Origin: Raillietiella orientalis
Taxonomy: Eukaryota
Direction: 5' to 3'
Assembly: GCA_036172245.1 (NCBI GenBank)
Contig: JAYWIR010000154.1
Span: 1-59,414 of the forward strand
Length of the DNA: 59,414 bases
In this document: positions 4,717 through 53,196 of the stretch, piece after piece
Numbering within the stretch: the stretch's first letter is position 1
Layout: each line of letters begins with the position of its first letter
Program-made: the position numbers and the translations under genes
Notes under the pieces: generated by a model
Seen by the model: the letters and a program-made list of their open reading frames with translations, nothing else
What the model was told of the DNA's origin: nothing
Databases searched by the model: none

Positions 4717-4721
4717 GGAGA

Positions 4722-7625
4722 GGGATTTGGGGAGGGGTCGCGTAACGAAAGGTGCTATTTTCAGGCCCGACGTTACGCGAGAACCCTTGACATGCGCAGG
4801 TTAGCAGAGTATCGAGCGGGAGCCGAGAGGCAAGCCTGGCAATCCGAGTCGGCCAGCATGTTGGACGACCAGGGCCGGGAGCACTCAGTTCCCGCTCAGA
4901 AACCTGGATAGTGAGTAAATTTTACTCCTCCCTGTACGCCAGGGCGCCTCCGGAGCAGGATGTCTCACGACTGCTGCTTCCGGAAGGTGCTCCAGCAATT
5001 GGGGAGGAGGAGAAAAGAAGCCTTGACCAGCCTTTTACGATGGACGAGATCCTCTCGTCCATTGGAAAGCTCAAGAGGCGGAAGGCTCCAGGGGAGGACG
5101 GCCTGCCCGCGGAGTTTTACCAAACTTTCGCGGCTGAGCTTACCACCCTGGTACAGCAACTCACCTTGCTGATTCGCGAAACAGGTGACGTTCCCACCTC
5201 GTTTCGTTCAGCAAAGGTGCGGCTCCTCCCTAAGGGAGGAGACCTTAGGAGCATGAACAACTGGCGTCCCATCACAATAGTGAATGCGGAAGCCAAGTTG
5301 CTAGCCAAGCTGTGGCAGAGCGCCTGGCACGGGTCGCAAACATCTTCATCAGCTCGGAACAGACATATGCTGTTCCCGGGCGAAGTATGGAGGCCAACCT
5401 GTTCCACACTTCCACATGGTTAGAGCTCTAACAAGGAAGGAGCATAATAAGCAACCGGAATTCCGGTGCGTCCGTCGGTGGGGGACGAGATGGTCAGAGG
5501 GGAGAGGAGCCCTCGTGGTCGCAGTCGATTTGCATAAAGCATTCGATTGCGTCGACCAGAATCTCCTTTTGGAGCTTCTGGAACGCTTGGGATTCCCGGC
5601 CTCTTTGCTGGCCTACATGCGCTTCAGCTGGCGCGACACGCTCATTGATGTTTTTTTTAGTGGATCCACCGTGTACGGCGTACCTGTGCGCGCGGCATAC
5701 GGCAGGGAGACAGCCTCAGCCCCTTGCTCTTCAGCGCCTATTTCGAATTGGTGCTGAGAGCGTACAGGGAGACTCTGGCGCACCTGCCGTGCGATTGTCC
5801 CGGTACGCCTTCAATTTCGGCGTACGCGGACGACCTTCTGCTGCTGCTGCCTATATCCACCCCGGCTGCGGCGGTCAAGGAGTTCTTCGACCTGCTGAGT
5901 CGGGGAACAGGACTGACGGTGAACAGGGCGAAGTCGTCCGTAATGCCAGTCGGAGCGGCGTGGGCAGGGCAGCAGGATTGGGTCCGTTTGGGGATCCCCA
6001 CGGTGAGGTACTTCAAGTAACTGGGTGTGCCGTTGGGGGACTACTCCCCTGCGGAAGCGTGGTCGGGCTGCCTTCAGAAGTCTCAGGCGGCGATCGGCCC
6101 GTTCCAGGACGGCAGGTGCTACCTGCAGAAACGGGCCGCGGCGTGAAACGCGTTTGCGGCCTCCCTCCTTCGCCCCTTGCTTTTTGTTTGTTCCCCCTTA
6201 GCGGAGTCAAAGAAGAGGACGAAGGACCTCCTGAGGATGGCCCATTGGGACAGAGGGCGGCCCCGAGTCCGTCTTTCGGACTTGTGCGCTCCTCTTCGGG
6301 ATAGTGGTCTGGGCCTCCTGACGTTGGAGCGGCTGGAGCTACAGCTCCAGTTCCGAGTTGTTGCCTTTATGGCAGAAAATTGGTGCACTCTTGGTGCCTC
6401 CCTGCACATCTTCTCTTCGAGCGGGCCAATGGCAATGCGGGACTGTCGTCCTACTTTGCACTCCGAAGCCCCATCTGCCACTGCTGACTTCATCTTCGGA
6501 GGGCGGCCAAGCTCGTGAAGAACAACTCGGCGCGGATTCTCGTACGCTTCGCGAACGGTCCTGCCTGGTTGCAGGAAACCGTCCGTACGTGGGCGATGAT
6601 TCAGGAGCAGAGCCCGCAACACGAGCGAACAGCTCTGTTTGGGCCGCATGCCCACCGCACGCTCCGAGAAATCGAGTATCCCCGAAGGAGAGCGTTGGCA
6701 CAAAAAAACTCCCTTGCTGCGGTACTGCCTACCCTACGATGACATCTGGGCAGCGACGTCACGGCACAATGGGAGGTTACTGTCAAGATCGCCAGCAGGG
6801 CAAAGAAGATCGGGGATTGGAGAACGGATCAGCTCACCAACGATGCTACCCCGAGGACCACCCCAAATGGACTGTCGCGCTGGGAAGAGCTACTGGATCT
6901 TCCAGAGGAACATCTCGAGTGGCCCCCGGTGCTCATGGACTCGCGCACCCTCCCCATGAAGTGGGAACAGTCGGCACTGCTGGTGTTGAATTTGGGGCTT
7001 CCTTGCAACGCCCGCCGACACCACTGCACGCGGGGGGCTGTCAACCCTAATTGTGTCAGGTGCGGGGAGAGGGAATACCTCCCCCACCTGTTAGTGGATT
7101 GGGTTGCCCTCCGTCCCTTGTGGAAACGCTTTGCCGCAGCCCTGGGGATCCCCGAAGGCAACCCCAGAGACACCTTGCGCCCCCTTTTCGTCCGTGACGC
7201 CCTGCCTCCAGTGGCCTCGCTTGCAGCCCTGTGCTGCCTACGCGGGATCGTCGTGGCATGGAGCAAAGCGACGGGAGGATCCAGCGACAGGGATGCCAAC
7301 GTGTATGCCGCCCGTTTCCTCAGGATGGCGACGCGATGGCACCACCTGTAACCACACACGCAGAAACAGCTTGCCGGCATCCTCCAGAGTATGACGGACC
7401 CTCCCAGGAGACTGTGATCCCTTCTCGCTTCCTCCCTGATATTTGTGTATGTTTTGTTTTGTTTTTGTTTCGTTTTCCCTCTTCTCTGCTGCCGAGGTGG
7501 ACCGCGCCGGTCTGCGCACCGGTAGCCCGGAAAGCTATACCTTTCCAGGGCGTCGCTGGACTACTGGTCCAGTCACAGATTGTATAGGTTTATCCGTGAG
7601 AATAAACGTCCCGGCGCACCCGGGT
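4722..7625 (+). mobile_element. S2: 3' part of an element (ORF2 linker, RT, CCHC, 3'UTR, intact 3' end)
   Basis: Starts GFGEGSRNER; KAPGEDG, WRPIT, DLHKAFD, YADD (~5823), CVRCGEREYLPHLLVD; stop ~7415; AATAAA plus hairpin 7601-7625. Confidence 0.92.
7601..7625 (+). terminator. Conserved 3'-terminal AATAAA plus hairpin (one of nine copies)
   Basis: Consensus AATAAACGCCCCGG-N5-CCGGGTG; also 7978-8003(-), 15879-15904(+), 21942-21967(+), 36669-36694(-), 42947-42972(-), 47851-47876(-), 49914-49939(-), 54702-54727(-). Confidence 0.8.
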
Positions 7626-7629
7626 TTCA

Positions 7630-7975
7630 ATGGAGATTCCGGAGCGTGACGCCTCTCAGGTATTCGCGAAGGTGTGCTTTCGCACCTGAGAGTCGCGTCC
7701 AGTCCCCCGGCAGAAGCCAATCACTGGATGGCGGTCCTTTGTCGCGAGGCCGCATCTCGAAAATTAACCAGGAATGGTCCGACAACGTCGACGAAACCCT
7801 CCCCCGTTTGCCGAACCGTAAACGCAGGTCAGCGTCAAGGAAGACGTGGTCGATGCTGCGGACCATACCCCTCTCACCCTCGAACAAGTTGCGCGCACGC
7901 ATAACGGCGCACAACTCGTTCATCGCGTTCTCTTGTGTTTCTGGCTCACCTGTTAGCAGACAGAGATTGAAATTT
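7630..7975 (-). mobile_element. S3: endonuclease fragment (FN...IDHVF...SDH...RGVTLRNL)
   Basis: ORF 7627..7980; paralogous to 54365-54700. Confidence 0.88.
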
Positions 7976-10735
7976 ATCACCCGGACACGCCGGGGCGTTT
8001 ATTAATAATAATAAACTGGTCAGGGCAATGTCTCCAACAAACAGAACGACAGAGAACATAGAAAAATCACCGTCACGCAGGCCTGGTAAACAAACCGCTT
8101 TTAGCGTGGAGGGAATGAGGTGAAACAAACAAAAATCAAAAAGTGGAGGGAAGGGTAACGGGTTTTTGGTTAGGCTCCGTACTCACGGGGATTTAAACGA
8201 TGAGCACCTGAAATGTTTTGGAGCCTATGAAGACGCGGGTGTAAAAAGAAAATACGAAATTAGTTTATGGAGGGTAGGGCAATGATCACCGGGTTGGCCG
8301 CAGCTGAGGGTGTGTAAACCGGCGGTGTATTGCGACGAGATTCCTTTTTGTCTCCTCTGTCAAATAAAACCATCTAGCGAATGCTCCCATGTAGAAGGAT
8401 GCTTTGCTGATTACCTCTTGGTGCTGTCCGTTGATTACCAACGCCTGGCGGACGGAAACTATCGCGCGTATGCAACCGATGGTTGCAATCCTTGCGCTTA
8501 GTGACATCCCGCTCGGCGTGAAGAATCGTCGCAGCAAGTCTCCTGCGGTGTCCACGGATTGCATAAGTGCTGTTGCCATCCTACGACACAGTCCTTGTAG
8601 GACAACGCAGTCCAGAAGTAGGTGCGGAATCGACTCCGTCGATCCGCCCCGAACGCAGTTCGCAGACGCAAGTCCCCCGGAGTCACGATGCCCACGCTCG
8701 TTGCACTGAAAACCCCAGTGAACGAAAAGCAGCATGGCTTGTTTGCAAGCAAGGGGGAACAGCGAACTGTCAATACACTGTAAAGGAACTACAAGTTCTT
8801 CGGGGGTGACAGCAAGTTGTTCTGCCCACCGGAGGAGTCCCTGTGCAGTAACACGAGGAGTGGCGGCGTCCGCCAACTCACTCGTCTTCTAGGCGCCAAG
8901 GATTGTGGTTTTTCCCGCTATCGTGCAGGAAACCTCTTACCTCGCCGGTTGGTAACTGTCGTTTCTTGCCCAAGGTGCAGACAGCGCTGCGGCAAGAGGC
9001 GTGGCAGATAGGGTAGAAAACTTCACCTCGTCCTGCAGTTCTTCTTCCAAAGATCTTGGAAAAAATTGGCTCAGGGGGCGAAGATCTTCAGAGGGTATTT
9101 CTTGGAACGCCGCTTAGGATTCAACAGACTCCGGCCGCCAAGCTTCAAAGTTCATTGGGCGGCAGGACATCCACGAGTGTGCTTCCAGAAGTGCGGTCAA
9201 CTGCCGCAATGGAAACACGAAACCCCGCTTCCTGTATCGAGTGCCCGGCAAAAGCAAGAGAAATCGTCCGCTGCCGGCGCAACTCCGCAGAAGGAATGCG
9301 GGCTGGCACACACAGGGGGGATGTCCATAGCTGGCCACACAGTGCCAGCAGTCGGAACTGTACCTGCAGTCCGATTCGCTCCATTGTCAAGATACCCAAA
9401 CCAGCATCCCGACGCGGAGCTAACAAATCTTTAAGGCGGATCCTGGATCTCGCCGGACCCCAGAGAGCGTTCCTAAGCAGGCGTTTAGCCCGCTGTTTTG
9501 CGTCCTAGGAGAAGTTCAAAACAAAGAAGAGGGGACGGAGGAGGGGGGCAACAAAGGTGCTCCAAATAGTCCTCCGTACCTGCAAGGTAAACTTGCCGTT
9601 AATGAACGGGCTGACGGCCAACTCTGCTTTCTGGAGACAGTCCTACCACGCTTCGGCTGCGCCTAAAGCGCCTAACGGAACGCCAAGGCACTTAAAGTAC
9701 CCGCCCGTGGGGATCCGCAGGCGGATCCAGTCGGACTGCCCCTCCCACGACGTACCCACAGGAACGACCACGCTCTTCTCTCTGTTCACGCTCACGCCCG
9801 CTCCTCGACGAATCAGGTCGAATAAATCCTCGACAATGGACGCCGTTGTGGACATGGGTAGCAGAAGAAGCAGGTCATCAGCGTAGGCGGCCACGGCAGG
9901 CGTTCCCGGGCAGGGACTTGGCAAGTGAGACAGCGTCAGCCTGCATGCTCTTAGCACCAACTCAAAGAAGATGCTGCAGAGCAACGTGCTTAAGCTGTCG
10001 CCCTGTCGGATGCCCCTACGAACGGAAATACCATACACGCGGCACCCGCTGAAAGTAATGCAGGATAGCGCGTGGCGTCAGCACGCGCGCAAATACAGCA
10101 GGAGTTGCGCCGGGAACCCAAGGCGTTCCATAAGCTCCAAAAGCAGCTTCTGGTTTACGCAGTCGAACGCCTTGTATAGATCGACTGCGACCGCCAAGGC
10201 ACCTGGCATTCCCTCTTGCCGTCGGCGCCTGTTCTTCTTGCCTGCGGCAGTAACTTTCGCAGCAGCCTGGATTTGCTGAGCCACAACTTCCTGCAGCTGC
10301 ATCCATGTACGCGCGAAAAGGATGTTCGCCTCCATGGATCGTCCCGGAACCGCGTAGGTTTGTTCCGGGCTCACCACAGATTTCGCGATACTTCCTAACC
10401 GCGCGACCCACAGCTTGGAAAACAACTTGACGTCCAAGTTCACCAAGGTGATCGGACGCCAGTTGTTAAGTTGTTGCAAGTCTCCGCCTTTCGGCAGGAG
10501 ACGCACCTTTGCTGAGCGGAAGGAATCCGGGACATTCCCGGATTCACTCATCAGCGTCGCGAGTTTCAGCATCAAGGGAATGAGCTCCACTGCAAAGGAC
10601 TGATAAAACTTTGCAGGGAGCCCATCCTCACCTGGCGCCTTTCGTCTCTTCAGCCCAGCGATTGCATACGGAAATTCATCCGCCGTGAAGGGCTCGTTGA
10701 GACGTTCGCGTTCCTTTTCGCCGACAACACCAGCT
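7976..10735 (-). mobile_element. S4: 3' part of a subfamily C element (RT, CCHC, 3'UTR, intact 3' end)
   Basis: ORFs 10078..10590 (WRPIT, DLYKAFD), 9643..10038 (RQGD, YADD), 8286..8876; terminal motif 7978-8003. Confidence 0.92.
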
Positions 10736-11117
10736 CCTCTTTTTGTACACCGAGAACGCGCATGGCCTGCGAGAAGGCGCGCGCGTTCTCGGGAGAATAT
10801 AGACCGCCTACCTTATATAGAAGGGGTGGGTTATACCCCTCCTTCAGGTAAGCGCGCATTTCCGCCATAGCCGCTGGCGTAGGTGCCGCAGCCACGGCGT
10901 TCCAAGTCCTGGGTAGGGCCGGGGGCGCATCCGTGCTGGCGGGAGCCTTCATTGATGCGGGAGCTCCCACCTCCATCTCCTCCGGGGCAATGAGGTCATC
11001 GCCCCCGGATCCTCACCGGTGGTGGTATCAGGCATTGCTGCCTAATCCTCCACCCACACCACGCACACGCACCAACGAAAATGAAACTCAGGAGCAACGA
11101 AAAGACACGTCCGCGAG
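10736..11117 (-). mobile_element. S5: 5'UTR and ORF1 N-terminus fused to the S4 linker
   Basis: GCGGACGTGTCTTTT at ~11100-11114; ATG 11035 (MPDTTT...MEVG...TWNAVAA...GYNPPLLYKVG). Confidence 0.82.
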
Positions 11118-12785
11118 ACGCTCCAGAGTCTCTCGGATTGGGACCATTTCATGGCCTCGGTCCGTTAGTTCTGCAAGCAGTGCACCCTGGACCGCCTGCC
11201 TTCCAAATTGTGCGAAAGCCCTCAAATATATCGGGCCTATTTAGAGGCTCGCAGGTACGAGAGAACCCTTAATGTTCGTCGTCTTACCGTGTACCGCGCC
11301 GGGGCCGAATGCCATTATTGGCAATTCGGTTCGGCCAGCTTGCTGGGCGACCAGGGCCGGGAATGATCGCCCTTGATGTCGGTACGACATATCGCGAGGT
11401 GTTTTTGTTTTTATCTTTACGAAACGTAGCCCACGGATCGAGACGCCTCTTGGCGCTTTCATCCATATGGCGCTTCGTCATTAGGGGAGGAGAAGATGCA
11501 AAGTTTCCACGAGCCTTTCACCACCTGCGAAATTCTCGCCTTTTTGCTTTCTCCGCCACCAGAGAGTGCAAAAGAGGACAAAGGACGTTCTACGTACCGC
11601 CCTTTGTGACAAGGGGAGGCCCCGAGTCCTTCTGAGGGAGTTGTGCGCTCCGCGTCGGGGCTGCGGTCCTGGCCTCCTTACAGTGGAGCGCGTGGAAATC
11701 CAGCTGCGGTTGCGAACCCTCGCCATTGCAGGGAAGATGTGGAGCACCCCTTGGTGCGTTCTGGCCCGCCTCCTCGCCAGGCGTGTGTCCCAATGCGAAA
11801 GACTCGCGTCGTTTCTTCTGTTCCCTGGCTGCAAGATCCGAAGATGCGGCCTCATGCTCCGACCCATAGCAACCCTGGCGCAGCCGAACGGTTGGATGGT
11901 TTGTGGCCCCGCCAAATCCTCCGTCTGGCTGAAGGAGACTGCTGGCACATGGGCCAAGCAAAACCGGAGAAGAGAAGACAATATGAACTACCTGCGAATC
12001 GGCCCATACGCCAACCGCACCCTGCGGGAAATACTGGAGTTTCCCCGGAGTCGCAGGTGGGCGTTGACGACTCCCCTTGCTACGGCTATGTTCTACCTCC
12101 TGAGAACGCTTCAGGATCCCCAGAAGCCGAGTTGGCAGGTCACCTGTTAGATCGCAGGCAGGGAGGAGATGTTAAGCGGCTGGACCACAGGAGAACTGGC
12201 GGACGCCACGACCCAGTGCTTCTAGCCGCGTCGATTGATGAGATGGGCCGAGCTGCTCGCCATCTTTACGAATGTGCTAAAGTGGCCTCCGGTGAAGAAG
12301 GAATTCAGGATCCTGTCCCTCAAGTAGCTGTAGTCGGAGTTGCTACTGATGCACTAGGGTTTACCCTGCAACGCACGCTGCTTTCACTGGACAATGTGAG
12401 CTCTTGATCATGAGTGTGTCAGGTGTGGAGAGCGGCAATCGCTTTTCCACCTTGTTGTGGACTGTGCAGCCCTCAGAACCCATTGGGAACGGTTCGGGAC
12501 GACCCTCGGGCTCCCTACGGGCAGCACTCTCAGAGACGTTCTTGGGCCCCTCTTCGTGAAGGACGCACTGCAGCCCGCCGCAGCCATCGCAGCCTTGGGC
12601 TGCGTCCGTGGCATCGTGGCGGCATGGAGCGACGCCAACAACGAAGGAGTGGGTTCACAGGCGAGGGATGTCATCTTGTATGCCCAACGCTTCTTGCCAA
12701 GAGCTGCCAGATGTCCAAAACTGGGAAATATGCAGACATACCTCGAGGAGTTCGTTCGACGGATGGGCCGAGTTTCCTAGCTCAA
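11118..12785 (+). mobile_element. S6: ORF2 remnant (EN end and linker, RT deleted near 11535, post-RT and CCHC region)
   Basis: TLQSLSDWDHF...ARRYERT, then ORF 11566..12150 (LCAPRRG), CVRCGER..HLVVDC at ~12415-12465. Confidence 0.85.
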
Positions 12786-15905: not shown

Positions 15906-15909
15906 GAAC

Positions 15910-19870: not shown

Positions 19871-19871
19871 C

Positions 19872-22912: not shown

Positions 22913-22914
22913 GA

Positions 22915-27622: not shown

Positions 27623-27635
27623 GAAAGGGGAACAT

Positions 27636-36664: not shown

Positions 36665-39600
36665 TTTTCACCCGGTTGCGCCGGGGCGTGTATTCTGTGG
36701 AATGAAACAAAGGTTGGCGGCTGACCAGGTGGTCCGTCCACGCACTGGTATACAAAATTAAGCCTGCCGGGTCAAGGGTTCGTATTCCGGCACGATCCAC
36801 CACGACGGCAAAGGGCCCAAGGACAAAATAAAAAATAAAAGAAAAAACAAGAAATATATAAAATCAATATCTGGGGGGCACGGGAAGGAATCACAGTCTG
36901 CTGGGGTCCGTTACATCCCTTGCAGCATGCCGGCAAGCTGTTTTTGAATGTTCGAATCCAGATGGATCCATTTTGTCGCCGTCCGCATAAATTCGGCTGC
37001 GCACTGCACGCACCCCTATCGCGAGGTCCTCCCGTTGCTTTGCTTCATGCAGCGACTATCCCGCGAAAGCAGCACAGAGCTGTATACGCGGCCGAGGGCC
37101 GAAGGGCTTCGCAAACGAAGAGGGATCTCATTGCGTCTCTGGGGTTGCCACATGGGTTACCGATTGCTGCGGCAAAACGGTTCTAAAGGGGCCGAAGAGC
37201 CACACAATCCAAGAGGAGGTGAGTGAGAGACTCTAGTTCTCCACACCTCGCACAATTAGGGTTCACCGCTCCCCAAGTCCAATGGTGTCGACGGGCGTTG
37301 CAGGGGAGTCCCCAATGCAGCACCTATAGCGCCGACTCCTGCTATTTTAAGGGGAGGGTGGAGGTGTTCATAAGCACCAGGGCTCACTTTTATTGTTCCC
37401 GCGGAACATTAAGCAGCTCGCTTCAGCGCAAAAGTCCAATATGGGTGGTAGTCCGGGCAGAGATTTCCCGTTTTCCATTCCCCGATTTTTTTTTTCTCTG
37501 TACCGTAGATTTTGATGTAAACATCCCATTTCGCGGCAGTGTTGCTGTTTAAATGTTTCGCGGGCAGAAACAGCATTGCAGCGAGGGGAGTTTTTCTTGC
37601 ACACGCTCGTTTTTGAGGGCTCTCCAGGACCTCTTGGAGCGTCAGTCGTTTATTTCGGGCGGAGAATTGTCTTTGCCCTTCTTGGGTGCGTTGCGAATGC
37701 GTTCTACACCGCTGCCCGTTCCGGCTGGAAAAACCTGTGGCCTTGGAACGGGCCCAACGCCGTCTCTACCTTTTGAAGGCAGCTTGACCACGCATCCGAA
37801 GGGAGATAATCACCCATCGGTAAACCGAGGTACTTGAAGTACCGTACCGTGGGAATCCCCAAACTGACCCAGTTCGGCTGCCCTGCCCAAGCCGCACCGA
37901 TTGGCATGGCGGACAACTTCGCCCTGTTGACCTCAAGCCCGAATCCCCGACTTAGCAGGTCGAAGAACTCCTCGACCGCCGATGCCGGGGTGGACATAGG
38001 AAGCAGCAGCAATAGGTCGTCCGCATATGCTGACACCGCGGGCGTACCGGGAAAGTCGCGCGGCAGGTGCGCTAGAGCTTTCCTGTACGCTCTCAGTACC
38101 AACTCGAAGTAGGTACTGAAGAGCAAGGGACTCAGGCTGTCTCCCTGCCGTATCCCGCGTCGCACCGGAACGCTGTGCACGGTGTGTCCACTGAAAAAGA
38201 TCCTGATCAGCGCGTCGCGCCATTAGAATCGCAGGTAGGTCAGAAAAGAGACCGGGAAGCCCAAGCGTTCCAGGAGTAACTGGAGGAGCCTCTGGTCGAC
38301 ACAGTCGAATGCTTTATGCAAATCGACTGCGACTGCGAGGGCTCCCTCCCCCCCCCAAAAATCCCATTTCCTAGCGGTCGACCTTCCGGAAGTCCAGTTG
38401 CCCATCCTGACCGTTTCCTGTTGGAGCGCGAGAAACATGCTGGCGAGGAACAGGTTGGCATCCATGCTTCGCCCGGGAACAGCATATGTGTGCTTCGGGC
38501 TAATGAAGCTTTCCGCTTACCGCCCCAAGCGTTCAGCCCACAATTTCGCCAGCAACTTGGAGTCCGCGTTTATCACGGTAATCGGCCGCCGGTTGCTCAT
38601 GCTCTGAAGGTTTCCTTCCTTAGGGAGGAGACCTACCTTTGCCGAACGAAACCAGGCGGGGACATCGCCCGTTTCGGGGATCAGCAAGATGAGTTTCTTC
38701 ATCAGAGTAGTGAGCTCTGCCGCAAAACATTGAAAAATTTATGCTGGCAGGCCATCCTACCCTGGAGCCATCCGCCTCTTGAGCTTTCCGATGGTCGAGA
38801 TGATCTCGCCCATCGTAAAAGGCTCGTCGAGGGACTTTCTATCTTCCTCCCCGATCGTCTGAGGGTCTTCCGGAAGAAGAAGTCGCTAGAAATTCCGTTC
38901 CGGTGCAGAGCGCGCGTACAGGGAGGAGTAGAATTTTTTTAATAAGCCTTTTACCTGGGCGGGGGCCGATTGCTTTGAGCCCTGTTCGTCCAGTAAGCTA
39001 GCCGACCCGGATTGCGACGCCTGCCTCTCGGCTGTCGCACGGTATTCGGCTAGCCTGCGTACGTCTGGTGTTCGCGCGTAACGTCGCGATTGTAAATACC
39101 ATCTCTCGTTACGCACGCTTCCACCAAACCCGGCAGGCAGGAGGTTCATAGGGAACTGGTCGCAAAAATTCCGGACCGAGCGCTTGAAGCGGTCCCAGTC
39201 CTGAAGCGTCAGCAAGCTGAAACCTCGTATGAATCCGCGGAGGTGCTCCGCGGCTTCTGCAAGTTTCAGCCAGTCCCCCGGTAAGCGCCACGCAGGTGAC
39301 GACGGACCTCTATCGCGTGGGCGCACCTCGAGTACGATCCGGTCATTGTTCGACAGTTCCCAAGGTAACTTGCCGCGCCTGCCCACGCGTGAGCATAGGC
39401 GCTGGTCAAGAAACACGTGATCTATGCTGTCGGCCATTTCCGGATCTCCCGCGAGCAAGTTGCGCCTGTGCATCTCTGCGCACAGCTCGTTCACGCGGTC
39501 CCGAAGTGTGTCGGACGCACCTGACAGCAGGTGCAGGTTAAAGTCACCTGCGATTAGGTGCGCCTTGCGCACTCCCGCTTCGTCCAGATATTCGCGCCTC

Positions 39601-41699
39601 AGGGTAAGGAAGAAATTTCTCCTTGCCTTTGCCCTTAGCGCGTCGCGGCCGCTTGGGGCGTACACGTTGGTAATGACCAGATCGATGGAGTCGGACTACC
39701 TGATGGTCAACTGCCCGACGGGACCGGCACTATCGAACCGTACACCCTTTGCCGCAGCCTTGACAGCTGGACGAAGCAGGAACGCGACATCGCAAGTTTT
39801 AATGGTGCCGCAACGCCACAGCAGCCGCCCACCCGAGATACGCTCGATCTGCGTTGCTTGATCTGCGGAGATCAAGTATATCTCTTGCAGCAGCATCTGG
39901 TCTAACGATGCCAAGGTGTAGGCCACGTCTCGTCTCTTGCCGTCGTCGCCTAGCCCGTTGACGTTCCAAGAGGCCATTCGCAGACGGCGGTAAGAAGTGA
40001 TTCCCGGCATTAAGGCTGGAAACGTGGCGTTGCAGCACCTGTCAGGGGACAGGTAGGAGGGACGAGTAAGGGGACCGCGTCCATCTCAGGCACTTGAAGC
40101 ACCTGGGACTCTACCCTTTCCCTACCTCTCGAGGAGAGTCCCCGGAGTTCCCCACTTTATTCGCACGCTCGCTTCCCTCAATTATCTCTCCCTTTTCCAC
40201 GGACGGGATTATTTTGCGGCTAGCCTTTTTCGTGCGAATGGCCTTTGGGCGGGAGACCGCAATGCCACAGGCTGTGTTTTCCGCCTCTGCGTCAGACTTC
40301 GGAATCTCCGACTTCTTGATCGAGGTCGGACGCCCTAAGGCCTTTTTCGTGGATTTAAGGGGACGCTGCAAGGACGCAACGAACTCCTCCGCTGCTCGCT
40401 CGAAGGCGACGTCGTTGAGCATGCGTTCAACGACGGACCCCACCGCCGGGTCGATAGCCTCCGGCATTAATTTGCCGGAGGGCTGAAAGTCGGCAGCGAC
40501 GAGTGCAATTTTGCCGCTCTTTTCGAACGCAGGAATGCGGTTCATGACGACAGAGCAGCGTTTGATAATTTCTCGACGCGGCAAACTCTCGTTGCGTTTG
40601 GCGACATTTTTTTTAGCTTCCTTGAGGCTTTTCTGCCTCTTGGATTTTACTACCTGGCATTGAGGTTCCTGGCCGTTCTCCTCGACCTTGTCCGAGTTTT
40701 CCAAGATCTCGGAGCCTACCTTCACCTGGGGAACGATAGTTGTTTTTCGAGCGGCGGCTATCTCTCGCGCTGCCTGAACTTCGCCACGCGCTTCTTCGCA
40801 TTCCGTGCGGAAGCGACGCGGAGTTCATTTTGCGGGCACACTGGAAGAGTGTGCCCGGGTTGCTTGCACTGCTTGCACTGCAAGTGGCGGCTTTTTTTTT
40901 TCAGGTAACCTGAAGTGCTGCAATGCCCGCAGAAATGCGGCTTACCGACATACCAGATGTCTACGGGTTCGCCCTTGACCTCCAGCTTGTTTGGTAGGGA
41001 GCAACCTTCGCGGACCGTGATGCGCGCGGAAGCCATACCGCAATTCATTAGATCGTACTCCCAATACGGAATCGGCCTTCTCCACAACGCGTGGACGGTT
41101 CCTAATTTAATTAATTCCTTTCGGACAGCTTCTTTGGCCATCCGGAAGGTGATTTCGAGGAGGTGGATCACGATAGATCTATCCACGGTGATCGGGAGGA
41201 GCCGGCGATTCCCTAAAGGAACAGGTGTACGGAGCAGACGCTGGGCAAGACTTGCTTCTTTGCAAATCACCTCAACGTACTGTCCACCACTCCTGATGGT
41301 CATCGCCAAGAGCTCCTTCTGGGGTACTTTGAGGGACTGCATCGCTTTCGAGAAAGCGCGTTCACTCTCAAAGGAGTAAAGGTTGCCTACCTTGTAGAGT
41401 AGAGGAAGATTGTACTTCTCCTCCAGGTGGGCTTTCAATTCTGCCGCAGCCGCTTGCGTTGACGCCGCAGCCACGGAACTCAGCTTCTCCCTAGCGAGGG
41501 AGTCGCTTCTGTGGGGCGGTTGCCCCCACATCCATTGATTTAGGAGGCGACATAGACGTCGTCCCATCCTTAACATTGGTGATGGTCCCAGGCATTGCTG
41601 CCTAGCCACCACCGAATCCGTTGGCACATTAAGAAAGAAAAGAAAAATCTAAAACGAAAAACGCTCAAGAGCGAAACTAAAAGCCGTCCGCTCTCGCTC
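36665..41699 (-). mobile_element. S17: element with both termini (internal deletion near 37600-37690), nested antisense in S16
   Basis: 5' GAGCGAGAGCGGACG 41699-41685; ORF1 ATG 41595 to TAA 40012-40010; ORF2 40010 to ~36891 (WNVNG, GDFN, IDH, DLHKAFD, RQGD, YADD); 3' motif 36669-36694. Confidence 0.92.
40008..40055 (-). promoter_or_regulatory. ORF1/ORF2 translational coupling signal: hairpin plus TAATG stop-start overlap
   Basis: ACCTGTC-CCCT-GACAGGT stem (40037-40054), 24-nt spacer, TAATG at 40012-40008; equivalents at five other junctions. Confidence 0.6.
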
Positions 41700-41793
41700 T
41701 TGGACTGGGACGATCTGAAAAGATCAGTCCACGAGTTCTGAAGCTGCTTCCCCTTGCGCCTGCTTCCCTGTGGCTCGGGGCAGGCGTGGCCAA
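41700..41793 (+). mobile_element. S16': resumption of S16 ORF2 after the S17 insertion
   Basis: Translates LDWDDLKRSVHEF*SCFPLRLLPCGSG, matching S9 ADWDHLKRSVPEFCDRFPLHLLPRSSG. Confidence 0.8.
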
Positions 41794-41795
41794 CA

Positions 41796-42942
41796 CGACC
41801 TGCTAAGCCGTGGGAATGGACTGCAGGTAAAGAAGGCAAAGTAGTCCGTGGTACCGGGAGTTGCAACGTGGGCTGGACGGCCTGACTGGATCCGCTTGGA
41901 TATTCCCACGGCCAGGTACCTGGAGTACCTGGGTGTGTGTGTTGGGAAAATTCTGCCTCGCAGAAGCCTGGTGAGGTCGTCTTCAAAAGGTAGAGTTGGC
42001 AATCGGCCCGTTCCTGGAAGGCAAGTTCCTTCTTCCGGAACGGGCCGCGGTGTGGAACGCGTTCGCTGCTCTCATCCTTCGCCCCCTGCTCTTTGTGTGC
42101 CTTTTCCCCGTGACTTGAAGAAAAGGACAAAAGACCTTCTTCGCATCGCCCTCTGGGGCATCGGGAGGCCACGAGCGCTTTTTAAGAACATATGCGCTCC
42201 TCGTCGTGACGGAGGCCTTGGCCTCCTGAAGTTGGAGCGCCTGGACATACAGCTGCTATAGCGCACCCTCGCCATCGCAGCAAAGCCATGGAACACCCCG
42301 TTGTGCGCTCCGTCCCATATCCTCGCCAGCCGTGTATCCTGGACGCAAGGACTCGCGACTTTCCTTCTGTGCCCCGGCCGGAATGTCAGGAGATGCGGCC
42401 TTATCCTTGGACGCATTGGAACTCTAGTGAGAAAATACGGCTGGACTAAATGCAGCCCCGCCAACTTCTTGAGGAATCCGTTGCGACGTGGACCAAGCTG
42501 AACAATCCAGGAACCGAGAATTGGAACCGCTTGCGATTCGGTTCCATCGCCTGCTGCACCCTACGGAGCACTCTGAAGTGTTCCGCCAGCAGCACGTCGG
42601 TGGAGACAACCCCTTTAGCTTCGACGCTGCCCTTTCTTCGGAGGGCTTTAACCAGCGGTAGGATGCCAAAGTGGCAAGTCTTCTGCCGAATCGCATAAAA
42701 GGAAAAAAAGATGAGCGGTTGGACCATGGGAGAACTAGCAGCCGCCACCACCCCTAGTGCCCTCTCGCGTGGACTTTCGAGATAGGGTGAGCTGCTCGGT
42801 ATCCCGACGGATGACCTGATGTGGCCCCCAGTTCTCATCGGTTCCAGGCTTTTTTCTCGGAAGTGGCAAGGGACGGCGCGCTGCTGCTGTTGCACTGCGG
42901 TCTACCCTGCAACGCGCGCCGCTTCCACTGGACGCGGGGAAG
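41796..42942 (+). mobile_element. S18: ORF2 fragment (late RT to start of the CCHC region)
   Basis: DLLSRG, DWIRL, EYLG, CAPRRDGGLG, LPCNARRFH. Confidence 0.88.
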
Positions 42943-45849
42943 TTTTCTCCCGGTCACGCCGGTGCGTTTATTAAAAAACACTTTACATTTGCGGTACTAG
43001 GCCCCGCTACGGCCAATATTTCATGGGTCCATCCAGAAATCCGGTTCTCAGGCCAGCCTGTCCTCCTCGGCAGCGGAGGGGATAGGGGGTAAAACAAAAA
43101 GAAAAATAAATGAAATAACAAAAAGAAACTATTTGATAGGCCGGATAGGAATCACAACCCGCTATAGGAAGAGACTATGCTTTCCTGGATGCCCTCGAGG
43201 TCCCTCGTCATAGCTCCCAGATGGGACCAGCCGATCGCGATTCGCAGGCATCGACTACCGTGTACGATGAGATCCCTGTCGCTGCTTCCTCTGTTGGCTG
43301 CGCTCCACGCGGTCACAATCCCTCGGAGGCAGCAAAGTGCTGCCAGGGCTGAGGCTGGTGTCAAGGCGTGTCGCAGGAAGAGGAGCCTCATAACGTCTCT
43401 GATGGTGCTGCCTACGGGCACTGAAAGGTTCGTTGAAAGACGTTCCCACAAGGGCCGGAGGGCAGCGCAGTCCACTAACAGATGGGGGAGTGATTCCTTC
43501 TCCCTGTACACTGCACAGATCGGATGAACATACCCCCACGTCCAGTGTTGGCGGCGCCCGTTGCAAGGAAGACTTCAGTGCAACAACAACAGCGCCGTTT
43601 CCTGCCACTTTAGGGGGAGGATAAATGAATCAATGAACGTCGGGGGCGACTCTAGGTCATACATCGGGATGCCAAGCAGCTCGCCCCATCTCCGTAGTGT
43701 ATGCGGGTTAACTCTTGGGGTCGAGGTTTCAACCAGATCTTTCATGGTCCACCCAGTCAGATCCTTCTCTTTGCCCGCTATCCGCAGGAGACTTGCCATC
43801 TAGGATTCCGGATATTTTGGAGCGCCCTCCGTAGGAAGGGTAACGCCGTGGCCAGTGGGGTCGTCTCCGCCCAAGTTCTTCTGGCGGGACACACGTTCAT
43901 GTTCCGCAGCGTGCAGCGGGTGTAGATGCCGGTACGCAGGCCGTTGCAGGATTCTTCACTGATATTGTTTATCTTTGCCCACGTTCCAACTGTTTTTTCC
44001 AGCCATGCGCTAGAGTTGGCGGGGCTGCAGGTCATCCACGCTTTCTCCTTTGCCAGAGTGGCCATGCGTCCCAGGAGAACTACGCACCTTCTTATTTTCC
44101 GGCAGGGGCACAGATGAAAAGACGCGAGTCCTTCAGTCCCGGACACACGTCTGGCAAGAAGGTGGGCTGGAACGCACCAAGGGGTGTTCCACATTTTCGC
44201 TGCGATGGCTAGAGTGCCCCACCGCAGCTGTGTTTCCATTCGCTACATCGTCAGGACGCTAAGACCTCCGTCCCGATGTGGAGCGCACAAATACTTTAAA
44301 GGCACACGAGGCCTTTCGCCGCATCTCAGGGCGATGCGTAGGAGGTCCTTTGTTCTTTTTTTCAGTTCACGGTAACGGTGCAAACAAAAAGCAGAGGGCG
44401 AAGAAGGGGAGCCGCGAACGCGTTCCACACCGCGGTCCGTTCCGGCAAGTGAAGCTTGCCTTCCAGGAACGGGCCGATCGCTGACTCCACTTTTTGGAGA
44501 CAACCTGACCAGGCTTTCGACTAGCAGTAGTCCCCCAATGGAACTTCGAGGTACTTCAAGTACCTCCCCGTGGGGAACCCCAAGCGAATCCTGTCAGGCC
44601 GTCCAACCCACGTCGCACCAGCGGCTACCACCGATGACGTCGCCTCATTTACCCGTAGTCCAGTCCCGCGACTTAGCAGATCGAAGAAATCCTCGTCTGC
44701 GTGTGCCGGGGCGGTCATGGGCAAAAGGAGCAAAAGACAATCGGCGTAAGCCGCTACGGCCGGCGTACCTGGACACGAGCTTGGCAGGGCATCCAATGTC
44801 ACCCTGTATGCTCTCAGCACCAGTTTGAAATAGCTGCTAAAGAGCAGGGAAATCAGGCTGTCGCTCTGCCAGATGTTACGCCTCACCAGCATGCCGAACA
44901 CGTGCTGTCCTCTGAAAAACAAGTTATTGAACGCATTGCCCCAGCAGGCGCGCAGGTAAGCCAGTGAAGTGTCCGGGAAGCCCATGCGAACCAGGAGCCT
45001 CAGAAGGAGTTCCTGGTCCACGCAATCGAACGCTTTGTGCAGATCGTCTGCGATCGCTAGAGCTTCCTTTTCTTCCCGGTCGTCCCTTACTTGCTGCGCT
45101 GGCACTCATTAATCAGGTTTGTCTACATTCCGTTCTTTTTCCAAAGTTTTCTCGCGTTGCAAATGGAACCATGTGCTGGCGAAGAACAGGTTCGCTTCTA
45201 TGCTTCGTCCGGGAACAGCGTATGTCTGTTCCGGGCTGACGAAGCTGTCAACTACCTGTCCCAGTCGCGTAGCGCACAGTCCAGCCAGCAGCTTGGCGTC
45301 CGTGTTCACAATCGTGAATGGACGCCAGTTGCATAATTTTCTGAGGTCTTCTCCCTTAGGAAGGAGCCTACATCTGGCTGACCGGAACGAGGCGGGAACA
45401 TCGCCTCTGTTTCGGATCAGACTTGTTAATTGGAGCACCAGGGGGATCAGCTCTGCCGCGAAGCTCTGAAAGAACTCCGCCGGCAGGCCGTCCTCCCGTG
45501 GCGCCTTACGCCTCTTGAGCCTTTTAATAGCAGTGATAATTTCACCGGTCGTAAAAGGCTCTTCGAGGCTTTCTTTCTTCTCCTTCCTATGGCCGGGGCT
45601 CCATCTGGGAGCAAGCGCCGCGAGACGTCCCACTTCGCAGGTTCCCTGGCGTAATCGGAGGAGTGAAATCCACGCACAAGGCGACGCATCGATGACGGGT
45701 GCGAGTATTCCTGGTCCTGGTCGTCCAGCACGCTGGGCGGCCTGGATTGCCAGGCTTGACGCTCGGCCCCGGCTTTGTACCTGGCCAAGCGACGGATGTC
45801 AGCGGTCCTCGCGAAACGACGGGCGTGCAAGTACGCCCTTTTGTTACGA
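42943..45849 (-). mobile_element. S19: 3' part of an element (linker, RT, CCHC, intact 3' end)
   Basis: ORFs 45109..45633, 44521..45105, 43778..44239, 43152..43511; terminal motif 42947-42972. Confidence 0.92.
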
Positions 45850-47846
45850 AAGGACGTGTTTTTCCTTTGCTCTGTCAACAAGTACCGGGAAGCGGTTTCT
45901 TCTTGGGAAGTGTGTGTTTTTTCACATCGTAGGTGTCCGATGGCATAGCTGCCAGAGGACATTACGATGGAGGTGGGCATGGGGAAGGCTAGTCCCCCCC
46001 ACGCCCTACTGTATCAGGGGCATCCGTTTCGGAATCATCCCTGGCAACGCCGAGGACGTGGAGCGCCATGGTGGCCGCGTCGAGCGCGGAAACCTTGTCG
46101 GAGCAAGCGGCCTACAGGGCCTCCGGCTATAAACCATCTCTGGTTTATAAGGTAGGACCCCTGTTCGATGGTCGCACTTCCCGTGCACTTAGTAGGGCAC
46201 TGCAGGATTTCCCTGTTCGAGAGGAGGATCTTGACGGCCTCTCCGTACTCAGCGGGGGGCAGCGCGTGGAGGTCGTCTGCAAAGACGTAGCCTTAACACA
46301 GCGCCTGATAAACACCCCGCTGAATGCGGATGGTTGGAAAATCCTATCGGTTAGCATGGACCGCTCCGTAGTGGTCCATCTAACCGGAATCACAAATCGG
46401 ATGACGCGCTCGACGTTCAATTCCGAGTTGATGAAATACGGAGAGGTACACACGTTGTGGCCAAGGCCCACCATCTTCGAAGGCTTTCATAGCCATTTCG
46501 GAGGTCAGGCTGCAGCGCGTGTCACTGTCAATGAGAATGCTGGGTTGCCCCACAAACTGGAGGTCGCGAAGGAATCCGTCGACCTCTTGTACGTGGGGAA
46601 ACCCCGCTTTTGTGGCTACTGCAATGCAGTAGGGCACTTGCGCAAGCGGTGCCCGTACATTAAGTGCCACTTGTGCGGGGTTAAGGGACACGTGCGTCAT
46701 GTGAGCCCTAAACTCTCCACCCCGGTGTCATCTGCTGCCAAAAAGGCGTTGGCCAAAAAAATGAACAAGGTCGAAAGACCTAAGCGAAAAACTGGCCGGC
46801 CTCAGCCGCCATCTCCTCTTCTTCTCACCCAGGCGTCGGAGGATAAAGCCGCAAAAGACGCGGGAGTGGAGGAGGGATGGCACCTGGTAAAGGCCAGGAA
46901 GGAGAAACAAGTGGTGAAAGAACCACTGAAGAAAACGGAGAAAAAGAACACGGCCGGCAAAAAGAATGAAGCCGCGCCGCTGTCAAAAAAACTCCGCGAG
47001 TGCTTGGTAGCACTGGATCGCGTGAGCGTTCCTGAGGCTGCCACCCGGGCCGACGAGCCTCCCCTCGCGGTTTCCACCACGCTCGAGGTTCCACAAGCGC
47101 GCGCCGACGGCGAGGACGCCGCCTTAGCGAAGGCGACGGAGGAGCTCGCGGTCACGCTGGCCGAGCGTGAGAACCCCCCACGCAAGGCCGTGCGCAGGCC
47201 GGCTCCGTCAAAGAAGGCCCACGGAGGTGAGTTCGACCTGGGGGCCGGAAGTGCATCCTCCTCCTCGGAGGCACCCCCCCGAAAGACGGGACGTAAATCC
47301 CAAAAACCGAGGAGGCGCCTCCCCTCCACGAGCGAGGAGGAGAAGCCGGAAGCCGACGCCAGCGTGTGAAACCCGGAGGTAAAATTCCTATGCACGGAAG
47401 CCGTCGAGCAGACCACTCCCATAAAGGAGGTTGAACAGGGGGCCAAAGTCCTCCCTGTAGTCGCCGAACCTGAACAGCCCGCCCCCATGGAGGAGTGCGA
47501 ACAGGGAGGCGCGACCCAACCTGAGGGTGAACCGGCCGACGCGCCGTTACCCATGGAGGAGGGCGACCAGGTACCTTCAGCACCTGACCCTCCCCCTCTA
47601 CCTAGCGTCCCGCCCCAACAGGTATAGGACGTCGGACAGCCAATTTCCCAGGAATAACACCTGGGCTCGCCTGTCGCCGTCGGATCCGCGTGGGCAGTTG
47701 GAACGTCAACTGGCTGCGCGACGACGGCAACAGAAGAGATAACGCCGACACCCTGCATGACTTCGACCTGGCCCTGCTGCAGGAGATCCACGTGATCACC
47801 GCGGCAGACGTCCAGGAGATCGCAACGATCGCTGGGGGGCGGTTGT
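45850..47846 (+). mobile_element. S20: 5'UTR, ORF1 (45940-47657) and start of the ORF2 EN; close relative of S1
   Basis: GGACGTGTTTTT at 45852; ORF 46068..47369 (CGYCNAVGHLRKRC); WNVN..LLQEIH..AGGRL. Confidence 0.92.
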
Positions 47847-49880: not shown

Positions 49881-49910
49881 CACCTGTCAAGGGACAGGTG
49901 AGGCGGACGT

Positions 49911-50560
49911 TTTCACACGGTGAAGCCGGGGCTTTTATTTGAAAACTAACAGTATTTGCGGTACAAGGCCCCGGTGCGGCCAATAGTGCTATGGAACTGT
50001 CTGGTTGTCAGTGCACAGACCGACATAACACTCCACGTCAACGGATGGGGTTAGGGAAAAAATAAAAATAAAAATAAAAAGTAGAAACACTGGTCATTGG
50101 GAGGGCCGGGAAGTGATCATTGTGCGTTTTGTTTAGCTTCCATCCTTTGCAGGATGCCGACTTGGTCCTTCTGCAGATTTCCCAGGTGGAGCCATCAGGA
50201 TGCCATTCGCAGAAAGCGAGCTGCATGCTCAACGGCATTCCTTCTGTTAGCATCCTCCGCTTCGTCGGATCCACTCCAAGCTGCCAGAATAGCGCGTACG
50301 CAGCAGAGAGCTGCTATAACAGCGGCTGAGCTGCAGGGCGTCCCGCAAGAAGAGGAGCCGAAAAACGTCTCTACGAAGACTACCGTCCAGGATCCCTAAG
50401 ATGAAACCGACACGCTCCCACAGGGGCCGGAGGGCAGCACACTCAACCAGAAGGTGCGAGAGGGTTTCCCGCTCCCCGCACCGGGAACAGTTTGCGTTCA
50501 CACTTCCCCGTGTCGCTATAGGGAGCAGACGTGATTTGGCATCGCTCCACGGACTGGTTA
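49911..50560 (-). mobile_element. S22: CCHC region, 3'UTR and intact 3' end
   Basis: NCSRCGERETLSHLLVEC; terminal motif 49914-49939. Confidence 0.87.
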
Positions 50561-50564
50561 GTGG

Positions 50565-53185
50565 GAAGCTTTTCGTTGGTTGTCTGGTGTATGGAAGCAC
50601 CAATGTCCCATGGATGAAATGCCTGAGGACATCGCGATGGAAGTTGAAGGAGGAGAAGCGACATGCTTTCCGACACCAATAAAAGTGGGGGCATCCGCTC
50701 CCACGGAATCCGGGGAACGTGCCCCATCGGAATCGGGAGCAATCCCCCCTTCGCGACCCTCTTCGCCATTGGCAAGGAGTTGGAGTGACGTCGTTGCTGC
50801 ACCATCCCCGGATGCAGTAGCGGAGCAGACTGCCTACAAGGACAGCGGCTACAAGCCGTCTCTGATCTATAAGGTAGGCAGTGTGTTTGATGAAAAAATT
50901 GCACGCTCCTTCGAAATGGAGCTGCAAAGGTTGAACGTGAGGGAGGAAGACCTTGAAGGCCTATCCCTCCTTAGTGGAGGCCAGCGAGTTGAGCTGACAT
51001 GCAAAGAGGCAAGTCTGGCTCAGCGACTGCTGAACACCCCTCTTACGGTGGACGGCCGCAGGATCTTCCCTGTGACGGAGGACCGCTCTGTCATGGTCCA
51101 CCTCACGGGCGTATCACTCCGAATGGACAAAACCAGAGTCCATGAGGAGTTGTCGATGCATAGTAGTGTGCACGTGTATTTGGCCAAACCCAATGTCTTC
51201 CGAACGTACGGAAGGCTATTCAGTGGGATGGCCGCAGCCGGCGTCAACCTACCAGAGAATGGTGAACTTCCCACAAATTGAATATCGGCGAAGAAAAAGT
51301 CGATGTTTGGTACGTGGGTAATTCCAACTATTGTGGCCATTGCGATGCTACAGGGCATCTAAGAAAGCGGTGCCCTAACATCCAATGCCACTTATGTGGA
51401 AATAAGGGCCACATCCGTAAGGTGTGCCCAAGGAGAGAAATCCCGTCCCCATTTGCTGCCAAAAAGGCAAAGGGGAAACGCACGGGAGAGACGCATACAC
51501 AGAAACAAGCTGTAAACACCCAGATGACAGTCACTAAGCCCCCACAGCAAACGTCGGTTGAGAACACTCCCGACGACGCTGATGACGGCGAAGGCTGGCA
51601 GACGGTACAGCCACGAAGAAAACCCGGGAGTCCCGAACGGAACGCGGTGAAAACAAAAACACAGCGTAAAAAACCGTGCCGCGAAAAGCTCCGCGCGTGT
51701 TTGGTAAAATTAGAAGGTGTGGAGGCAACCGATGTTGCCACCGGGGGAGCATTCTCCCCCCTCACGTCCGCCAAAGCAGCGACGGTCGATGGTGAACCCT
51801 CTGGCGAATCACAGGGGGAACCGCGCGCCGCGCTGGACGCGATCGAGGAGGCCGGCTCCCAGCAGGCGGTGGGAGAACTCACGGCTGAACTGCAAGGCCG
51901 TGAAAAGAACTCGCGAAAGGCGTTGCGAAGGCCGGTCGCGAGGAAGGCTCCGGAGGTAGGTGAGGCCGATCCGGACGTCGAAATTGCGTCCTCTTTAGCG
52001 GAGTCGCCACCAAAGAAGACGGGACGTAACTCTCAGAATCCCAGAAGGCGCATCCGGATCAATAAGGAGACGGAGGAACCATCCCCCGAGGAAGAAGCCG
52101 GCAGCGTGGGAGGCAAGGGTGGGAATATCTGATTCCCCGACACCGTGCAGCTAGCGACTTCCATGGAGGAGGATGCGCAGGTGGGTGAACTACTACTTCC
52201 TCTGCAAGGCCCCGACGACGAATCGTCCTCCATGGAGGAGGGAGAAGCGGTGCGCGACACACCCCCTTCTCCTAGCGTCCCGCTTGACAAGGTGGCAGGA
52301 GCCCCATTGCCAATTTCCCAGGATTAACACCTGGACTCGTCTGTCGCCGTAGGATACGCGTAGCCTGCTGGAACGCCAACGGGCTGCGCGATGATGGCAA
52401 CAGGCGGGACACGGCCGACACCCCGCGTGACTTCGACCTGGCCCTCCCGCAGGAGATCCATGTGATCACCGCAAGGAATGCCCAGGAGATCGAGAGGGGG
52501 GTCGTCTGTTTTGGCAATGCGGCTCTTGCAACACCTGTGACGTCGCGTTTTTTATGAACCCAGCAATCGCTTCCTTCTTCCAGGACAGTCGGGTTGGCCA
52601 GCTTATCCTTAGGTGGTCCGACTCGATCGACCTTGTCGTGACTAATGTGTGCGCTACGAGCGGAGGACGCGGGTACGGTGAACGTTCCCGGTTCCTCGGA
52701 ACCCTGAAGCGCGAATGGCCGGCGGATAGAAACGTACGCAAGGCACATCTTATCGGTGGGGATTTCAACATCCGCCTGCTCTCAAATGTGCCTTGCAGGC
52801 AAAAAGACGCAAACAACGAGTTGTGCGCCGCTATGCGTACGCGCAATTTGCTGGGGGACTTTCCGGAAATGGCCCAAAGCGTAGATCACGTCTTCCTTGA
52901 CGCCGACCTGTGCTTAAGGGTCCGCAGACTAGGCAAACTTACGTCGAAGCTATCGGACCACTACTGGCTGATAAGCGAGATTATGCCACGCGACAATCGA
53001 CCACTATCCAGGGTGTGGCGTATGCCAGGGGACTGGACGCATATCTCAGGTGCGGCGGAACATCTCCGTCAGTTCCTGAGAGGCGTCATCCTTTGCAACC
53101 TCGAAGGTTGGGACCACATGAAGGTCTCGGTCCGCGAGTTCAGCGAGGATTTTCCTTTGCACCGCCTGCCACGGGGATTTGGAGT
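50565..53185 (+). mobile_element. S23: ORF1 (50610-52327) and ORF2 EN up to GFG
   Basis: ORFs 50580..51281, 51278..52132 (CGHCDATGHLRKRC, CHLCGNKGHIRKVC), 52554..53297 (GGDFN, VDH, SDH). Confidence 0.92.
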
Positions 53186-53196
53186 TGTAACCAGGG

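Follow-up and report, generated by a model that had tools for sequence, protein, structure and literature searches.

Antisense junctions cluster in the ORF2 of a probably self-nesting, L1-like retrotransposon family on a Raillietiella orientalis contig

Introduction

The closest described counterparts of the locus reported here, a stretch of 59,414 nucleotides (nt) of Raillietiella orientalis DNA (contig JAYWIR010000154.1, hereafter the window), are the clusters of Zepp in Coccomyxa and Chlorella and of ZeppL-1_cRei in Chlamydomonas, centromere-associated long interspersed elements (LINEs) of the L1 type. In the passages of PMC8226300, PMC3446292, PMC9940879 and 10.1101/2024.02.27.582245 that deal with them, the Zepp clusters of green algae are attributed to nested insertion targeting existing copies; PMC3446292 gives one such cluster per chromosome, and table 3 of PMC3747384 lists Zepp and L1-1_CR with an (A)n 3' end. 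According to the same passages, several green algae have centromeres marked by self-nesting clusters of LINEs, and the route by which one copy finds another is left open there. The window looks likewise like a LINE-only, GC-rich nested cluster (G+C 50-63% throughout, no obvious cellular genes), and we lean towards reading it as nested copies of one L1-like retrotransposon family without long terminal repeats (LTRs).

Human LINE-1 has the order of parts that this family appears to have, namely endonuclease (EN), linker and reverse transcriptase (RT), and we know of no preference of L1 for a place in its own second open reading frame (ORF2). R2, R1 and Tx1 are strictly site-specific LINEs. Among the L1 outcomes treated in passages of PMC10760644 are truncation at the 5' end, deletions at the target, and target cuts that are either blunt or staggered. 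Nested plant LTR retrotransposons are reported in PMC6911290 to target specific regions of other elements, and they resemble the family in the window in their non-random positions; they are of a different class, which uses an integrase and not target-primed reverse transcription. Self-nesting as in Zepp is therefore known, and the part that appears to be new is a defined antisense entry point in ORF2. Neither a defined ORF2 entry point nor antisense entry was found in the literature searched on such clusters, a search whose scope left the primary Zepp papers outside. Here we map the junctions between copies in the window, following an earlier note that had placed seven of roughly 30 of them in about 120 nt at the boundary of the EN and linker parts of ORF2, the five with a true element terminus being antisense to the host.

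Results

Junctions concentrate in a 118-nt stretch of ORF2

An nhmmer profile of 5033 positions was built from the window's own copies and seeded on the complete copy S17. The ends of all 40 profile matches were read, and the junctions were checked on the sequence and in ungapped alignments. We counted 31 internal ends after excluding natural termini, one junction duplicated at 90% and two ends at the limits of the profile. The insertion sample consists of 13 junctions between an element terminus and a family copy, all from this one 59-kilobase (kb) window. The results showed that every coordinate of the earlier note was a real junction, a few of them after slight correction by the sequence check and the profile map.

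Five insertion junctions lie in the stretch. At 4722/4723, the 5' terminus of S0 (1..4722, minus strand) meets S1 (4723..7630, plus strand), which begins at the peptide GFGEG, profile 2567, and runs to its 3' terminus. That 3' terminus in turn meets F3 at 7630/7631; F3 (7631..7973, minus strand; S2 in the earlier note) is a host fragment covering profile 2154-2496 and stops after 2496, at ..RNL. At 11117/11118, the 5' terminus of E11 (10730..11117, minus strand) meets S5 (11118..12782, plus strand), a host fragment beginning at TLQSL, profile 2480. Both ends of S17 (36665..41701, minus strand) lie in a single plus-strand host, H17, at profile 2496|2497 (36664/36665 and 41701/41702). At 45848/45849 (±3), S20 (42943..45848, minus strand, profile 2585 to its 3' terminus) begins at RNKR, profile 2585, against the 5' terminus of E20' (45849..47846, plus strand). 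Two further junctions are internal breaks: H17 jumps from profile ~2593 to 3736 at 41795/41796, and E50 (50521..53197, plus strand) stops at 53185-53197, at profile 2578 (~2598 with a 7-nt gap), where it meets a minus-strand fragment at profile 3961. The three junctions that had been described as nearby map to profile 2389 (15908/15909, sense), 2783 (21971/21972) and 2727 (58743).

The claim of seven in roughly 30 was borne out as 7 of 31 internal ends within 118 nt, profile 2480-2598, with a scan p of 0.0008 under a uniform null and of 0.0035 when the null is weighted by the coverage of each position in the window. This stretch corresponds to amino acids (aa) 125-164 of the translated protein P0001 and begins ~40 residues behind the EN motif SDH. 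Five of the 13 terminus junctions fall within 106 nt (p = 0.0006). The junction map also agreed that all five junctions with a true terminus are antisense to the host (5/5 in the stretch, p = 0.03; 10/13 overall, p = 0.046), which differs from Zepp arrays, described in the passages cited above with tandem 3' ends. These results indicate that the cluster is non-random and exceeds chance in this window. As an insertion hot spot, the set of seven junctions holds for the five insertion junctions, whereas the other two are breaks by internal deletion or rearrangement.

The insertion junctions fall on discrete sites

The copies divide into at least three subfamilies. S0, E20', F11 and F10 belong to alpha, and less closely S20, F3 and F3'; S17 and S1 form beta, and E11 and E19 resemble S17 more than they do alpha; F4, F4', F8 and H17 form gamma.

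The first site, N1, is profile 2496^2497. In alignment A3 (ten sequences, ungapped), the upstream sides of F3 and H17 stop at a common column, H17 resumes on its downstream side in the next one, and S5 begins 17 columns earlier. N1 thus holds two independent 3' ends that follow the same nucleotide, with a 5' junction 17 nt upstream; for eight independent 3' junctions, a same-strand coincidence of any two to within 2 nt has a probability of 0.01. The site lies between the second and third base of the codon before DW(D). The upstream half of H17 (35777..36664, plus strand), a strongly decayed gamma copy whose left limit is uncertain, ends there on the second base of the last codon of ..IREFE, and the downstream half (41702..42942, plus strand) resumes at profile 2497, runs to ~2593 and, behind the jump, covers 3736-4436. 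H17 reads in frame across the empty S17 site (IREFE|DWDD), so the insertion of S17, a complete beta copy of 5037 nt that lies antisense in its host, was blunt, with host bases neither duplicated nor lost.

The second site, N2 (~2584^2585), lies 88 nt downstream of N1, directly behind GFGEG. In alignment A4, S1 begins at GGATTTGG and S20 begins 18 columns later at CGTAAC. Relative to N1 and N2, the offsets of the five insertion junctions are 0 or 17-18 nt. A third site, N3, lies at profile ~4422-4436 in a GGACKYGGGGAAG-like word (window 42935-42950 and 50510-50545), where the 3' end of S20 sits on H17 at 4436 and the 5' junction of E50 sits on X (49910-50520, minus strand, profile ~4422 to its 3' terminus) at ~4422. 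Both N3 junctions are antisense and they lie 14-17 nt apart. Among the 13 events, five close pairs (no more than 20 nt apart) were found against 0.57 expected (p = 0.0006), and the junctions are antisense at N1 (3/3), N2 (2/2) and N3 (2/2). The inserts at N1 (S1, S17 and E11) are beta or beta-like and those at N2 (S0 and E20') are alpha, a split by subfamily that is suggestive over five events. The earlier note had spoken of a regional target preference without a strict motif: the positions are indeed non-random here and no strict nick motif was seen, but the insertions are not diffuse over 120 nt and fall on two discrete sites.

The stretch also occurs uninterrupted. In S0 it spans 1975-2091 on the minus strand, with N1 between 2066/2065 and N2 between 1978/1977, and F3' (53537..54697, minus strand, profile 2154-3312), a paralogue of F3, runs through both sites. 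F3 and F3' are 88.6% alike over profile 2155-2486 and then match at only five of the last ten nt before the S1 tail. As a separate observation, the G-rich word GGAYKYGGGG occurs family-wide only at profile 166, 2567 and 4424, two of which are junction sites; the word was defined post hoc and its register to the nicks differs, and we treat it as a lead only.

Compared with R2, R1 and Tx1, the family is alike in its recurrence at one nucleotide and in its fixed orientation (7/7 antisense over N1, N2 and N3). It differs in that nearly all 3' junctions of strictly site-specific LINEs lie at one nucleotide, against only two of eight at N1 here, and in that their target is a multicopy gene of the host, whereas this family enters its own coding sequence, with no shared recognition sequence seen.

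Alternative origins of the junctions

We prefer the explanation that these junctions arose by strand-specific, site-preferring target-primed insertion into the family's own ORF2, which we hold to be somewhat more probable than its negation. The best-surviving alternative, which we regard as unlikely, is a fragile or structure-prone stretch, in which a hairpin or cruciform on the coding strand and the G-rich run behind it would break without the element's endonuclease and the breaks would be filled by EN-independent insertion or rearrangement. A consensus stem (2492-2503 with 2519-2530) is kept in 8/8 aligned copies, with N1 in its 5' arm, and in S0 an imperfect inverted repeat (window 2012-2092) pairs CTCG..GACTGG with TCGGTC..CGAG. 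Of six 150-nt folds, three reach z-scores of -1.8 or lower, one of them -3.2; the seven junctions include two simple internal breaks; and the wider region 2389-2951 takes 12 of the 31 internal ends (p = 0.0005). However, covariation in the stem is weak (a term of -0.32 kcal/mol, double changes in 2/10 pairs), and the other three folds are no better than shuffles. Passive breaks should moreover accept both orientations, and the insertion junctions in the stretch are antisense without exception; nor would breakage be expected to bring two 3' junctions into agreement to the nucleotide.

Clustering by chance, noticed through an easily recognised conserved peptide, appears improbable. It is favoured by the small sample, by the choice of the stretch and of its 118-nt width after the data had been seen, and by a scan p of only 0.11 at a width of 60 nt. 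On the other side, the cluster remained the densest, with p between 0.0005 and 0.007 for widths of 118-500 nt, when the map was rebuilt independently of the peptide with a nucleotide profile that spans the entire element; the coincidence of two 3' junctions on one nucleotide also speaks against chance.

Survivorship, by which insertions would have occurred anywhere and copies nested in sense or at other sites would have disappeared at a higher rate (for instance through direct-repeat recombination), is in our estimate distinctly improbable. Antisense nesting does prevail over the whole window, and most nests are incomplete, so that much sequence has been lost. Loss by recombination biases orientation, but it cannot account either for the two 3' ends at one nucleotide or for the five junctions within 106 nt, and dead copies are not selected for where they were hit.

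The earlier note had itself raised the possibility that the junctions are one or two ancestral events copied by segmental duplication; together with misassembly of a repeat-rich region, we judge this very improbable. The window does contain two large duplications of ~90% identity (7633-10738 with 54357-57394, and the tandem 23975-29603 with 29588-35231), and segmental duplication was tried as the source of the junctions (INDEPENDENCE) and rejected: neither duplication holds any of the seven, and the insert and host sides have diverged unequally. In the N1 pair, the inserts S1 and S17 are 76.5% alike and the hosts F3 and H17 50.5%; in the 2567/2585 pair, the inserts S0 and E20' are 79.8% alike and the hosts S1 and S20 69.9%, with breakpoints that differ by 18 nt. 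The events are independent by this unequal divergence. As for misassembly, fold-back read artefacts give identical arms and do not fit, because the head-to-head arms here are of different subfamilies.

Least probable of all is twin priming (5' inversion), in which each head-to-head pair would be one event from one RNA, or its variant with the homologous host strand as second primer: all six intact 5' termini do stand head-to-head with an antisense fragment, four of these fragments reach an intact 3' terminus, and the layout matches L1 5' inversion as the relevant part of PMC10760644 describes it, but both forms were rejected on subfamily (S0/S1, E19/F10 and E20'/S20), on the unequal decay of the arms, on arm coordinates and on the single open 817-aa frame of S0 across the supposed joint. 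The 5' part of S0 is 80-87% like E20' and 54-58% like S17, whereas the copy closest to its partner S1 is S17; similarity to S0 amounts to 52-56% in E19 and to 84% in F10, the other arm of that pair. In none of five pairs do the end of the inverted arm and the start of the direct arm coincide (inverted-arm ends at 392, 911, 1880, 2578-2598 and beyond 4013 against direct-arm starts at 2480, 3378, 2585, 4422 and 2567), with gaps of 701-2470 nt and one pair overlapping by more than 1400 nt.

Structure and relatives of the family

Family sequence makes up ~47 kb of the window in at least 25 fragments, and clustering by insertion is seen in one closed nested insertion and 12 further junctions of a terminus with a copy. 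The best-kept copy, the alpha copy S0, is also the youngest-looking; it covers profile 4-4013 and holds the 5' terminus with an untranslated start (~4722), ORF1, the putative EN part and an open ORF2 frame of 817 residues (window 1-2451) that includes the RT and leaves the window, with an in-frame stop directly upstream of it at 2452-2454. The ORF2 frame of S0 matched RVT_1 (PF00078) with 71.1 bits against a cut-off of 29.6, showing an RT of the LINE type. The closest solved relative of P0001 is human LINE-1 ORF2p (aa 211-564 against 406-740, E = 5e-37), with R2 proteins far behind (E = 1e-10 to 7e-16). Matches to the apurinic-type endonuclease PF03372 reached 24.1, 15.9 and 13.2 bits in three copies, all below the cut-off of 24.5, and jointly span profile positions 4-225 of 225. 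In ORF1, zf-CCHC scored 20.1 bits, just below the Pfam cut-off of 20.8, and two Cys-X2-Cys-X4-His-X4-Cys motifs can be read in S0. CCHC zinc knuckles in ORF1 occur in many L1-like elements of plants and algae.

All nine 3' termini (7630, 7974, 15908, 21971, 36665, 42943, 47847, 49910 and 54698) share AATAAA, a CCCGG-N5-CCGGG hairpin with a 5-bp stem, and TGAWAA, and no poly(A) was present at any of the nine in the window. In this the family differs from Zepp, which has a poly(A) 3' end in the table cited above, and from human LINE-1, in place of whose poly(A) it carries the 3' stem-loop. A stem-loop without poly(A) suggests that the RT may recognise a specific 3' end, the 'stringent' type in the part of PMC3747384 that treats 3' ends. 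Six copies share a single 5' terminus, and besides these six full 5' termini there are truncated starts at profile 2154, 2389, 2567, 2585, 2841, 2951, 3378, ~3415 and ~4422, the L1-like combination of one shared 3' end with varied 5' truncation. Near 37690, S17 is short of ~490 nt behind profile 4013, in the ORF2 part behind the RT, which all other copies carry, and the full element is therefore ~5.5 kb long. ORF1 of E20' is open over 458 aa (window 45993-47369); judged by this frame and the open ORF2 of S0, the alpha subfamily may be active or recently active.

A search of a protein collection gave six matches at E ≤ 1e-10, the nearest with 66% identity and the next with no more than 25%. No copy or relative outside the window was found in the genome contigs or viral contigs searched. 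A pattern derived from the 3' ends in the window matched 17 metagenome loci, none of which (0/17) matched the family profile, and these were set aside as chance matches. The protein atlas returned only RVT_1/Exo_endo_phos clusters, the majority without any taxon on record and none informative for placement. In the public DNA run X1, 674 contigs are 80-99% like window 1-20000, 15 of them at least 99%, which is the same or a related organism sequenced elsewhere; among the matches listed, only ordinary uninterrupted copies could be joined, and they have no bearing on the hot spots.

Other features of the window

F4 (7974..10728, minus strand, gamma, profile 2841 to its 3' terminus) forms with F3 the 90% duplicate of 54357-57394. 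Of this duplicated composite of two nested fragments, the left copy is cut by the S1 tail (7630/7631) and by E11 (10728/10730), and the right copy continues at both ends. E11, which is related to E19 and S17 and stands head-to-head with S5, consists of the 5' terminus and 390 nt. The reverse complement of its 5' terminus (window 11087-11117) resembles profile 2437-2465, so that the nhmmer alignment of S5 ran into it; the resemblance is good in E11 only and much less in other termini, and was judged to be chance.

The family fragments F7 (13352-15908, plus), F8 (15909-18852, plus), E19 (18933-19870, minus), F10 (19871-21971, plus), F11 (21972-22913, minus) and F12 (22921-23514, plus) have their junctions outside the hot stretch. 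Between F12 and H17 lies a second, distantly related non-LTR family on the minus strand (window 23975-35231), with ~24-28% aa identity to P0001, in the form of a 5.6-kb unit repeated directly in tandem (23975-29603 with 29588-35231) at 89.8% identity. The gamma copies H17 and F4' resemble each other over another ~100-170 nt upstream of the profile's stopping point (~1670), and the similarity then fades (35700-35870 and 58560-58730); from this comparison, gamma may have a different 5' part, or none. On the far side of S20, the alpha copy E20' runs from its 5' terminus to profile 1880, where it ends against the 3' terminus of Y (47847 to ~49890, minus strand, profile ~3415 to its 3' terminus). 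E50 extends from its 5' terminus, which abuts X at N3, to the break in or just behind the hot stretch.

Discussion

Under target-primed insertion with a site and strand preference, new copies would enter older copies by target-primed reverse transcription after the older copy's coding strand had been cut at a few preferred positions. The new copy would come to lie antisense because the cut coding strand primes the complementary DNA. N1 and N2 would serve as such positions in the linker-coding stretch, ~40-80 codons behind the EN motif SDH. The second strand would be cut either opposite the nick, as for the blunt S17, or ~17-18 nt upstream (14-18 nt when N3 is included), which would place 5' junctions 17-18 nt before the nick. 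We infer this stagger of 17-18 nt from junctions of different events, both ends being seen for the blunt S17 only. We likewise infer that a nick preference of the element's own machinery is the cause and that the preference extends beyond this window. The age order at both N2 nests fits: S0, with no stop in 817 aa, lies in S1, with three stops and three frames in 662 aa, and E20', with its open ORF1, lies in S20, with five stops in 682 aa; by this measure of decay the inserts look younger than their hosts.

Several points weigh against this explanation. There are only 13 informative events, all from one 59-kb window, and the profile coordinates derive from the same window as the junctions, in addition to the post hoc choice of width. 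Site preference is far from strict: six of the eight independent 3' junctions lie off N1, at profile 1880, 2154, 2389, 2783, ~3415 and 4436, and a comparison of the flanks around all eight found no shared sequence. Third-codon conservation of the stretch is 0.44-0.54, within the 0.36-0.71 found elsewhere in ORF2, and shows no excess. Only S17 has both ends in one host, the other nests are not closed inside the window, and E11, E19, E20' and E50 lack their 3' parts, so that later deletions, or insertions accompanied by target-site deletion, must be assumed. The 3' end of S0 lies beyond the window, and its insertion into S1 is therefore read from one junction. Finally, E20' and F11 look intact, yet the 3' termini that adjoin them belong to the decayed Y (1.7 stops per 100 aa) and F10. 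Such an age order is the reverse of that expected, unless copies already dead but with a good hairpin at the 3' end were mobilised in trans.

A defined, strand-specific entry point in ORF2 would offer a short DNA target for cutting assays and a prediction for the other clusters of the genome. It would also raise possible competition between subfamilies, since each hit parts the endonuclease of the older copy from its RT. The weight of the finding hinges on a genome-wide count: without a genome-wide excess, the window would be an ordinary, much rearranged LINE graveyard.

Beyond site-preferring insertion as such, it is conceivable, though we rate it as rather doubtful, that the family carries its own landing pads. 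The machinery would then recognise a feature of the linker-coding DNA of any copy and cut the coding strand at fixed nucleotides, beta elements at N1 and alpha elements at N2; candidates for that feature are a structure, or hybridisation with the incoming sense RNA, by which the coding strand would be bared. If this were true, each new copy would come in reversed and interrupt, between EN and RT, the ORF2 of a copy that is older and often a rival, and such homing would confine the family to islands of its own making, which would explain the growth of LINE-only, centromere-like clusters.

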